Assembly: GCF_046105845.1 (NCBI RefSeq)
Contig: NZ_CP151004.1
DNA: 64,000 nt
DNA from: Escherichia coli
GTDB taxonomy: Bacteria; Pseudomonadota; Gammaproteobacteria; Enterobacterales; Enterobacteriaceae
Reading direction: 5' to 3' (one strand)
The notes beneath the pieces are model-generated. The model was not told the origin of the DNA, did no database searches, and saw only the letters and a program-made list of their open reading frames with translations. Of this stretch, positions 17,947-37,977 are shown in pieces; the stretch's first letter is position 1, and every line of letters starts with the position of its first letter. Both the position numbers and the translations under genes were made by a program.

Positions 17947-18065
17947 AATCTCGCGCTAACAACCTGGAATCGAGCCGTCATACTACGGCGCAACGCCCTA
18001 TAAAGTAAACGATGACCCTTCGGGAACTTCAGGGTAAAATGACTATCAAAATGTGAATTGTAGCT

Positions 18066-18099
18066 GACCTGGGACTTGTACCCGGGTCGGTATTTTTTT
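18066..18099 (+). promoter_or_regulatory. greA leader hairpin plus U-tract (attenuator; likely 3' end of the GraL leader RNA)
   Basis: gacctggg...cccgggtc inverted repeat followed by ggta ttttttt (18093-18099), about 95 nt upstream of the greA ATG. Confidence 0.5.
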
Positions 18100-24750: not shown

Positions 24751-24837
24751 GCCGAGGTGGTGGAATTGGTAGACACGCTACCTTGAGGTGGTAGTGCCCA
24801 ATAGGGCTTACGGGTTCAAGTCCCGTCCTCGGTACCA
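24751..24837 (+). tRNA. leuU: tRNA-Leu (GAG anticodon), 87 nt with encoded CCA
   Basis: gccgaggtggtggaattggtagacacgctaccttgaggtggtagtgcccaatagggcttacgggttcaagtcccgtcctcggtacca: long variable arm, T-loop GTTCAAGTC. Confidence 0.95.
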
Positions 24838-28617: not shown

Positions 28618-28694
<77 letters not shown>

Positions 28695-28816
28695 CTTTCC
28701 CTTAGAGTCCTTTTTCAAATATACTGTGAAGACTTCGGCCTTCGTAGTGGGATTTGAAAAAATCCTTCTGGAAAGTGCTCCAGACCGCAGTTGCGGTTAT
28801 AGGGTTCAGTTATATA

Positions 28817-28842
28817 AAGCCCCGATTTATCGGGGTTTTTTG
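28817..28842 (+). terminator. Intrinsic terminator/attenuator between metY and rimP
   Basis: aaagccccgatttatcggggttttttg; a second weaker hairpin gggctttaggcccttttttt at 28864-28883. Confidence 0.65.
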
Positions 28843-28900
28843 TTATCTGACTACAGAATAACTGGGCTTTAGGCCCTTTTTTTATGTCTTGGGGGTGGGC

Positions 28901-33578: not shown

Positions 33579-33656
33579 GTAGGCCGGATAAGGCTTTTAC
33601 GCCGCATCCGGCAGCCGTTGCCTGATGCGACGCTCGCGCGTCTTATCAGGCCTACA
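33579..33656. repeat. REP/BIME element (two inverted REP units) in the infB-rbfA spacer
   Basis: gtaggccggataaggcttttacgccgcatccggca and gcctgatgcgacgctcgcgcgtcttatcaggcctaca match the REP palindromic unit consensus. Confidence 0.8.
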
Positions 33657-35121: not shown

Positions 35122-35487
<366 letters not shown>

Positions 35488-35502
35488 TTCTTGCGAGTTT
35501 CA

Positions 35503-35531
35503 GAAAAGGGGGCCTGAGTGGCCCCTTTTTT
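35503..35531 (+). terminator. Rho-independent terminator after rpsO
   Basis: aaaagggggcctgagtggccccttttttc. Confidence 0.8.
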
Positions 35532-35733
35532 CAAGCTGACGGCAGCAATTCACTGGAAACTAATGTATTGTTGCTATGAATGATCTTCCGTTGCAGAGGT
35601 TCGCGCGGCTAATGAGAGGCTTTACCCACATTGGGCTGGGTTAGGGTTGTCATTAGTCGCGAGGATGCGCAGAAGATCGGGTATTAACACCAGTGCCGTA
35701 AGGTACTGTCTAAGAAAGAGAAAGGATATTACA

Positions 35734-37869
35734 TTGCTTAATCCGATCGTTCGTAAATTCCAGTACGGCCAACACACCGTGACTCTGGAAACCGGCATGA
35801 TGGCTCGTCAGGCTACTGCCGCTGTTATGGTTAGCATGGATGACACCGCGGTATTCGTTACCGTTGTTGGCCAGAAAAAAGCCAAACCAGGTCAGGACTT
35901 CTTCCCACTGACCGTTAACTATCAGGAGCGTACCTACGCTGCTGGTCGTATCCCGGGTAGCTTCTTCCGTCGTGAAGGCCGCCCAAGCGAAGGCGAAACC
36001 CTGATCGCGCGTCTGATTGACCGCCCGATTCGCCCGCTGTTCCCGGAAGGCTTCGTCAACGAAGTTCAGGTTATCGCCACCGTGGTTTCTGTTAACCCGC
36101 AGGTTAACCCGGATATCGTCGCGATGATTGGTGCTTCCGCAGCACTGTCTCTGTCTGGTATTCCGTTCAATGGTCCGATTGGTGCTGCCCGCGTAGGTTA
36201 CATCAATGACCAGTACGTACTGAACCCGACTCAGGACGAACTGAAAGAGAGCAAACTGGATCTGGTTGTTGCGGGTACTGAAGCCGCTGTACTGATGGTT
36301 GAATCTGAAGCTGAACTGCTGAGCGAAGACCAGATGCTGGGCGCAGTAGTGTTCGGTCATGAACAACAGCAGGTTGTTATTCAGAACATCAATGAACTGG
36401 TGAAAGAAGCCGGTAAACCGCGTTGGGACTGGCAGCCGGAGCCGGTAAACGAAGCGCTGAACGCGCGCGTTGCTGCACTGGCTGAAGCTCGTCTGAGCGA
36501 TGCTTACCGTATCACCGACAAACAAGAGCGTTATGCGCAGGTTGATGTCATCAAATCTGAAACCATCGCGACGCTGCTTGCTGAAGACGAAACCCTGGAC
36601 GAAAACGAACTGGGTGAAATTCTGCACGCTATCGAGAAAAACGTTGTTCGTAGCCGCGTACTGGCAGGCGAACCGCGTATCGACGGTCGTGAAAAAGATA
36701 TGATCCGTGGTCTGGATGTGCGTACTGGCGTGCTGCCGCGTACTCACGGTTCTGCGCTGTTCACCCGTGGTGAAACGCAGGCACTGGTTACTGCAACGCT
36801 GGGTACCGCTCGTGACGCACAGGTTCTTGATGAACTGATGGGCGAACGTACCGACACCTTCCTGTTCCACTACAACTTCCCTCCGTACTCCGTAGGCGAA
36901 ACCGGCATGGTCGGTTCTCCGAAGCGTCGTGAAATTGGTCACGGTCGTCTGGCGAAGCGCGGCGTGCTGGCAGTAATGCCGGATATGGACAAATTCCCGT
37001 ATACCGTACGTGTGGTGTCTGAAATCACTGAATCCAACGGTTCTTCTTCTATGGCTTCCGTGTGCGGCGCGTCTCTGGCGCTGATGGACGCAGGTGTGCC
37101 AATCAAAGCTGCCGTTGCGGGTATCGCAATGGGTCTGGTGAAAGAAGGCGACAACTACGTTGTACTGTCTGACATTTTGGGTGACGAAGATCACCTGGGC
37201 GATATGGACTTCAAAGTTGCGGGTTCCCGCGACGGTATCTCTGCATTGCAGATGGATATCAAAATTGAAGGTATCACCAAAGAGATCATGCAGGTTGCGC
37301 TGAACCAGGCTAAAGGTGCGCGTCTGCATATCCTGGGCGTAATGGAACAGGCGATCAACGCGCCGCGTGGCGATATCTCTGAGTTCGCACCGCGTATCCA
37401 TACCATCAAGATCAACCCGGACAAGATCAAAGATGTTATCGGTAAAGGCGGTTCTGTAATCCGTGCTCTGACCGAAGAAACTGGCACCACCATCGAAATC
37501 GAAGATGACGGTACTGTGAAGATCGCAGCGACCGACGGCGAGAAAGCGAAACATGCTATTCGTCGTATCGAAGAGATCACTGCAGAAATCGAAGTGGGCC
37601 GCGTCTACAATGGTAAAGTGACCCGTATCGTTGACTTTGGCGCATTTGTTGCCATCGGTGGCGGTAAAGAAGGTTTGGTACACATCTCTCAGATCGCTGA
37701 CAAACGCGTTGAGAAAGTGACCGATTACCTGCAGATGGGTCAGGAAGTACCGGTGAAAGTTCTGGAAGTTGATCGCCAGGGCCGTATCCGTCTGAGCATT
37801 AAAGAAGCGACTGAGCAGTCTCAACCTGCTGCAGCACCGGAAGCTCCGGCTGCTGAACAGGGCGAGTAA
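35734..37869 (+). CDS. pnp: Polynucleotide phosphorylase, 711 aa, TTG start
   Basis: ORF 35647..37869; conserved N-terminus [30 protein letters not shown] from TTG at 35734; KH and S1 domains at C-terminus. Confidence 0.95.
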
Positions 37870-37878
37870 GGTTGCCAT

Positions 37879-37907
37879 TTGCCCTCCGCTGCGGCGGGGG
37901 GCTTTTA
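37879..37907 (+). terminator. Candidate terminator hairpin after pnp
   Basis: gccctccgctgcggcggggggctttt (imperfect stem, short T-run). Confidence 0.45.
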
Positions 37908-37977
37908 ACCGGGCAGGACGCCTTGTTAGCAACCGGGAACAGGACGTTCATTCAACCGTGGTCTTCGGGAGTGGGAA

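Follow-up and report, generated by a model that had tools for sequence, protein, structure and literature searches.

The 246 bp that separate rpsO from pnp in this Escherichia coli genome are, we are highly confident, the rpsO-pnp operon's known post-transcriptional control region, nearly all of whose bases serve one strand or both. Through at least four layers, namely RNase III cleavage, feedback by PNPase, CsrA and the antisense RNA SraG (also known as PsrO), this short region sets the level of PNPase, a major enzyme of RNA degradation. As all of the spacer is explained by a textbook regulatory region, it is already known and well studied, and the finding is correct but ordinary. What we add is modest: the coordinates of the elements, the sense-strand bias of a long leader hairpin (hairpin R), a second hairpin (hairpin 2) kept in structure only, the observation that the pnp start is never ATG, and the extension of hairpin R to Gilliamella and Pasteurellaceae. 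Coordinates, folds, family membership, conservation and covariation, and strand asymmetry were established here, and the cleavage, binding and expression steps were taken from the literature.

The window, that is, the whole stretch of 64,000 nucleotides that was analysed, contains rpsO at 35218–35487 on the plus strand (89 amino acids, ribosomal protein S15; stop codon TAA at 35485–35487), according to both the list of open reading frames and direct reading. With the end of rpsO and the first base of the pnp TTG codon both read directly, the spacer (35488–35733) is exactly 246 bp long, the length given in the preliminary description, and the RefSeq annotation of an identical genome and of K-12 agrees with the placement of both genes. 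The spacer annotated in K-12 MG1655 is likewise 246 bp, followed by a pnp gene of 2136 bp. In a sequence search, the 401 bp around the spacer were 100% identical to E. coli FDAARGOS_497, and this stretch was found in 5,425 of 5,426 complete E. coli genomes, in 5,411 of them at an identity of at least 99%. The K-12 locus (sraG, b4449, and the leader of pnp, b3164) has the same TTG, terminator, hairpin R, Shine-Dalgarno sequence and SraG promoter region. Between 35400 and 35800 the window and K-12 share 399 of 401 aligned bases, and the two substitutions both fall in the 8-nt apical loop of hairpin R, which reads CATTGGGC in the window and CATAGAGC in K-12 with the predicted pairing unaltered. 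A third version of this loop, CATCTGGC, occurs in E. albertii, also with unchanged predicted pairing. In the identical genome annotated by PGAP, SraG and the pnp leader elements are unannotated, whereas they are annotated in K-12; placing SraG (minus strand) and the leader elements is therefore of value for genome annotation (Table 1).

Table 1 Features in and around the rpsO-pnp spacer, in window coordinates.
Feature	Position	Strand	Basis or remark
greA leader	17977–18098	+	Rfam
Two tRNAs, rimP leader and naRNA4	24751–24834, 28618–28691, 28783–28883, 33582–33652 (in the order reported)	+	Rfam
S15 leader (RF00114)	35160–35274	+	Rfam, 117.6 bits; upstream of rpsO
Invariant GTTTC block	35497–35501	+	Just 5' of the terminator; invariant in 27 aligned Enterobacterales spacers
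Bidirectional Rho-independent terminator	35503–35531	both	T1 for rpsO (+), SraG terminator (-)
Predicted hairpin GCAGCAAU...AUUGUUGC	35542–35574	+	Between the terminator and the P2 start
Hairpin R, RNase III substrate	35599–35666	+	Fold, covariation, covariance model, published sites
Differences from K-12	35632 (T; K-12 A), 35634 (G; K-12 A)		8-nt apical loop of hairpin R
GGA motif GAGGATG	35661–35667	+	3' arm of hairpin R
Hairpin 2, CAGUGCC-GUAA-GGUACUG	35691–35708	+	Between hairpin R and the Shine-Dalgarno sequence; -10.9 kcal/mol, z -3.8
SraG (PsrO), 216 nt	35719–35504	-	Rfam and mapping of K-12 sraG b4449
pnp Shine-Dalgarno sequence AAGGA	35722–35726	+	Direct reading; AAGG conserved; also the second GGA motif
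Putative SraG promoter -10 element TAATAT	35726–35731	-	At -12 to -7 relative to the mapped start, in the interval from the Shine-Dalgarno sequence to TTG
pnp (PNPase, 711 aa)	35734–37869	+	Start TTG 35734–35736

The RNase III-processed leader hairpin which the preliminary description had named from K-12, without delimiting it, could be placed as hairpin R; it is conserved with covariation and has the published cuts inside it. Its basal helix of 12 bp pairs 35604–35615 with 35650–35661, and its apical stem pairs 35624–35628 with 35637–35641 around a loop at 35629–35636, the single-sequence fold having 26 pairs. Taken alone, 35597–35670 folds with -36.0 kcal/mol (z -5.3 in a comparison with shuffles). 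When the leader was folded as a whole, the plus strand from 35536 to 35760 reached -77.7 kcal/mol (z -4.2), and 0 of 200 shuffles were as stable. RNase III sites have been published at +39 and +77 from the P2 start of pnp (PMC5029454), and the strongest RNase III signal in RNA-seq of wild type versus an rnc mutant was reported at K-12 position 3311286 (PMC5371410), which maps to 35616 in the window, inside hairpin R. Both sites and the RNA-seq signal fall within the invariant helix. From +39 and +77, independently of the RNA-seq signal, we infer cuts near 35614 and 35652 (within 35612–35616 and 35650–35654), facing each other atop the 12-bp basal helix and about 2 nt or less away from the two-base stagger that is expected.

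For the comparison across species, the N-terminal 150 residues of PNPase served as query against species-representative genomes and gave 80 loci, ranging from Escherichia albertii to Pasteurellaceae. The gene upstream of pnp is rpsO in 78 of the 80 loci, and the spacer measures 201–353 bp in 71 of 72 Enterobacterales loci and 689 bp in Moellerella. Erwiniaceae (L010, L011, L013, L016, L024–L026, L028, L029, L035, L039–L043, L063) have spacers of about 300–318 bp, compared with ~245 bp, and their extra ~60 bp lie between the rpsO stop codon and the 3' end of the match to the SraG model (in L010, stop at 588 and match from 671). Across Enterobacterales the arms of hairpin R, TTCGCGCGGCTAATGAGAG and TTGTCATTAGTCGCGAGGATG, are nearly invariant, and its apical part, which varies from 24 to 82 nt, folds into a stem in nearly every species. 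At 56–82 nt, this apical part is enlarged in Dickeya oryzae, Budvicia, Moellerella and a single MAG; the loci with an expanded apical part (L036, at 707–822, L045, L068, L069 and L074) retain the invariant basal arms.

In place of MAFFT, which misaligned the variable apical part as well as the segment from hairpin R to the Shine-Dalgarno sequence, we used anchor-based extraction, folding of each species separately and a covariance model. The consensus structure of a 44-species alignment has 25 pairs, with 95.1% of the cells paired compared with 37–51% when the partners were slid. Double changes were observed in 40 cells of hairpin R versus 12.5 expected, a number reached by 0 of 500 shuffles, although the sequences are related rather than independent, so that this shuffle figure, like the Wilcoxon figures and the counts over 76 sequences given below, overstates the number of evolutionary events. 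It is the apical stem that covaries; 11 pairs never vary within Enterobacterales, and the basal helix, being invariant there, therefore gives no covariation evidence within that order. The covariance model built from the plus-strand alignment (R1) matches the plus strand of the 64-kb window once only, at 35597–35670, and has one match upstream of pnp in each of the 72 Enterobacterales loci. Beyond Enterobacterales it scores 47 bits in Gilliamella and, weakly, 20–28 bits in Pasteurellaceae, where a diverged hairpin R has a basal helix with compensatory changes. The Gilliamella homologue, upstream of pnp, has the core CGCGRCUAAUGA / UCAUUAGUCGYG; in locus coordinates the Gilliamella and Pasteurellaceae hairpins lie at 716–778 (L078, L079, L082), 773–859 (L080) and 774–853 (L081). 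In Yersinia pseudotuberculosis the pnp mRNA was higher in an rnc mutant (PMC11361751), which agrees with the conservation of hairpin R.

Any 246-bp sequence folds to some extent, and one could therefore propose that the spacer consists of a terminator and a promoter only, the long hairpin being a chance fold with no function at the RNA level. We give this explanation practically no credence, given that no shuffle folds as well, that the hairpin has been kept in three orders, with compensatory changes, and that published RNase III cleavage and RNA-seq signals lie inside it (PMC5029454, PMC5371410). Judging from the sequence comparison, covariation and cross-order conservation of hairpin R already refute it.

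A hairpin encoded in DNA is present on both transcripts, and G-U pairs on one strand correspond to A-C mismatches on the other. Among 76 distinct sequences, 94.7% of the cells are paired on the pnp strand versus 77.1% on the SraG strand, the mean folding energy is -34.6 versus -20.6 kcal/mol and stability favours the pnp strand in each of the 76, with 337 G-U cells versus 9 A-C cells for hairpin R on the pnp strand; as most of the G-U pairs lie in invariant columns, these strand counts reflect few evolutionary events. The hairpin of the window itself follows the same pattern (-36.0 kcal/mol on the plus strand versus -21.2 kcal/mol on the SraG strand). At pair 9:64, G-C has changed to G-U in three species, which keeps the pair on the pnp strand and breaks it in SraG. 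The region of hairpin 2 has the same bias, in weaker form, with the plus strand more stable in 51 of 67 sequences. The direction of these comparisons is consistent and points to the sense-strand leader as the better-kept structure.

The opposite view would be that the hairpin and its flanking blocks are kept mainly for the structure of SraG, the pnp leader hairpin being only a mirror image. In its favour, the only Rfam model for the region is SraG, on the minus strand, and this model reaches its threshold in 36 of the 40 loci tested; moreover, SraG alone is cut by RNase III in vitro at the mirror sites (PMC5029454). We consider it improbable, as the plus strand has the higher share of paired cells, G-U pairs becoming A-C in SraG, and the more favourable folding energy in 76 of 76 sequences, and as the substitutions at pair 9:64 preserve the pnp-strand pair only. 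In addition, the hairpin is present in Gilliamella, where the Rfam SraG score is below threshold, and the reported effect of SraG on pnp is small, a rise of about 1.3-fold in pnp mRNA and PNPase when its promoter is lost (PMC5029454). The other loci below threshold among the 40 tested were those of Thorsellia, Hartigia and Aeromonas; L078 (Gilliamella) was the only one of L078–L082 scanned against Rfam. The structured parts of RF00082 mirror the sense-strand elements hairpin R and T1 and, because it is the sense strand that is better kept, an Rfam SraG match in another species does not on its own show that SraG is made there.

Keeping, then, to a leader conserved mainly on the sense strand, a broader interpretation is possible, which we offer tentatively and rate somewhat below an even chance. 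The cross-species signal of the "SraG family" may be mostly that of the sense strand (hairpin R, hairpin 2 and the rpsO terminator), the sense hairpin and the never-AUG start forming an autoregulatory module that predates SraG and is found across Enterobacterales, Orbales (Gilliamella) and Pasteurellales, with SraG arising later and in some lineages only. The invariant arms of 19–21 nt would then owe their constancy to recognition of their sequence (by RNase III, PNPase, CsrA) and not to pairing alone.

The small RNA SraG/PsrO, which the preliminary description had mentioned as reported from this region, is encoded in the spacer. Rfam family RF00082 matches the minus strand at 35675–35504 over its full length (model positions 1–177) with 162.2 bits (threshold 50; E = 1.5e-29), and alignment to the annotated sraG of K-12 (b4449, 3311183–3311398) gave 214 of 216 identical bases. 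The identity takes in the 42-nt 5' part needed for repression, the only differences being the two loop substitutions. Fontaine et al. (2016, PMC5029454) used cRT-PCR to map the 216-nt primary transcript of K-12; its start lies 42 nt upstream of that of an older 174-nt annotation and its end is the terminator common with rpsO (PMC5029454). The Rfam model follows the older annotation, so that the mapped transcript begins 42 nt further upstream than the model, at 35719 in the window (PMC5029454). SraG begins with a U (the complement of A35719), 3 nt short of AAGGA, and has its 3' end at the terminator. SraG is antisense to about 144 nt of the P2 transcripts and, in transcripts that read through from rpsO into pnp, to all of the intergenic part; it lies between the two genes and opposite to both, as in K-12, and its strand folds with z = -3.0. 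SraG runs antisense over 216 of the 246 bp, and hence is not a small separate gene within the spacer.

By our own reading of the sequence, the SraG -10 hexamer would be TAATAT; at a spacing of 16–18 bp from it we found no convincing -35 element. The promoter sequence is identical to that of K-12, where a -10 mutation abolishes SraG and the promoter was described as close to, not over, the Shine-Dalgarno sequence (PMC5029454). Expression of SraG has been shown only in K-12 strains (PMC5029454), and in the present strain SraG would likewise be made from a promoter in the interval between the Shine-Dalgarno sequence and TTG.

At the other end of the spacer, the terminator serves both genes. On the plus strand T1 reads GGGGCC-TGAGT-GGCCCC followed by six T, with a folding energy of -19.9 kcal/mol (z -3.7), and on the minus strand the SraG terminator, found by a terminator scan, reads GGGGCC-ACTCA-GGCCCC followed by CTTTT (-15.7 kcal/mol, z -2.7). 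The arms GGGGCC/GGCCCC are conserved in the aligned Enterobacterales spacers. Decay of the rpsO mRNA starts with RNase E cleavage upstream of T1 (PMC5029454), and the GTTTC block coincides with the published region of this cut, the exact position of which is putative.

The start of the pnp promoter P2 was located through a published pnp RNA of 234–237 nt, which extends from the P2 start to a primer ending at nucleotide 79 of the ORF (PMC5029454); because of this end point, P2 transcripts should start at about 35576–35579 on the plus strand and have a 5' UTR of about 155–158 nt. The hairpin predicted at 35542–35574 on the plus strand, and more weakly in the SraG fold, overlaps TAATGTATTGTTGC, a conserved block in which the P2 -10 element probably lies. 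A scan with consensus promoters gave no sigma-70 match for P2 anywhere in the spacer, and reading by eye gave no convincing -35 element there. The -10 candidates considered by eye, TATTGT (35566–35571), TAATGT (35562–35567) and TGcTATGAA (35572–35580), are all weak.

TTG is in general a rare start codon, and the preliminary description had called the TTG start of pnp unusual. The codon at 35734 is real and is followed by CTT AAT CCG ATC GTT (M-L-N-P-I-V), but it is not unusual for pnp, for which TTG is the established start: among 80 species (L003–L082, positions 898–903) the start codon is TTG in 74, GTG in six and ATG in none, which suggests selection for a weak start codon. RefSeq places the start at the same base in the identical genome and in K-12, and a 30S toe-print showed initiation at UUG (PMC5029454). 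The distance from AGG to the start codon is 8 nt in the window; it is also 8 nt in 61 of 72 species, and 9 nt in 10.

The frame of pnp is open for 50 codons upstream of TTG 35734, and the mechanical list of open reading frames begins the gene at TTG 35647, which would make a protein of 740 amino acids; a start at ATG 35665 would make one of 734, TTG 35734 being internal in either case. We rejected both candidates and hold an upstream start to be extremely unlikely. An in-frame stop codon closes the extension within 23 codons of TTG in 56 of 73 species, and the upstream frame is therefore not coding. Furthermore, between hairpin R and the Shine-Dalgarno sequence both length and sequence vary and the frame is not kept, the candidate upstream starts lie inside hairpin R, and a conserved AAGGA stands 8 nt before the conserved TTG, the codon to which both RefSeq and the toe-print (PMC5029454) assign the start. 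On the minus strand, the mechanical list also holds an open reading frame of 740 amino acids (35710–37932) that runs antisense across the whole of pnp with no stop codon. Its length equals that of the over-extended plus-strand pnp frame by coincidence, and codon usage is its probable origin.

Between hairpin R and the TTG start, a hairpin of at least 6 bp occurs at the site of hairpin 2 in 56 of 67 distinct species sequences, formed by 38 different stem hexamers, and hairpin 2 is, as judged from this comparison, conserved in structure and position and not in sequence. Its mirror image lies within the 42-nt 5' part of SraG that is required for repression. Across 73 sequences, the motifs GAGGATG and AAGGAT (35722–35727) are either invariant or conserved to more than 90%. 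Two CsrA sites in the pnp leader, one of them over the Shine-Dalgarno sequence, and repression of processed pnp transcripts by CsrA are attributed to Park et al. 2015 as cited in PMC5029454. The two GGA motifs would be these CsrA sites, recognised here by the presence of the motif alone.

Taken together with the published work, these elements would act as follows. Transcripts of rpsO would end at T1, and read-through and P2 transcripts would carry the pnp leader (about 158 nt) with hairpin R, then hairpin 2, and finally the Shine-Dalgarno sequence 8 nt before the weak UUG start. RNase III would cut both arms of hairpin R, after which PNPase would remove the short 5' fragment, which stays base-paired with the 3' arm (PMC5029454). 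Removal of this fragment would expose the pnp message to decay by RNase E (PMC5029454) and, as outlined in the same paper, open the freed GGA motif and the Shine-Dalgarno sequence to CsrA; PNPase would thus limit its own synthesis. On the minus strand, the promoter between the pnp Shine-Dalgarno sequence and start codon would drive the 216-nt SraG, which would end at the T1 terminator read in the opposite direction. SraG would pair with the leader as far as 3 nt short of the Shine-Dalgarno sequence, thereby blocking 30S binding, and this pairing would create new RNase III sites (PMC5029454). Nothing that we found contradicts the reading of the spacer as this control region.

Among known systems, the rnc leader is similar in that cleavage of a 5' UTR hairpin by RNase III destabilises the downstream message (PMC5371410). 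It differs in being of unrelated sequence and gene, and the enzyme that feeds back is RNase III itself, whereas in pnp it is PNPase acting after the RNase III cut; pnp, unlike rnc, also has the additional layers of CsrA and the antisense RNA. RliD of Listeria and ref41 of Enterococcus are RNAs transcribed opposite pnp/pnpA or the region upstream of it (PMC5029454). They have been set beside SraG by published description, with no sequence homology to SraG reported (PMC5029454).

The wider surroundings of the spacer, with truB, rpsO, pnp and nlpI read from the list of open reading frames and the Rfam matches of Table 1, fit the known E. coli neighbourhood. In one of the 5,426 complete E. coli genomes (NZ_OZ040555.1, our locus L083) an IS4 element lies between rpsO and pnp, at 1141–2487. 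It is inserted inside the rpsO terminator and the 3' end of SraG, at approximately window position 35511, and would be expected to cut pnp off from the rpsO promoter and to deprive SraG of its terminator. Fontaine et al. (PMC5029454) mention that in Yersinia pestis, too, this intergenic region has an insertion element.
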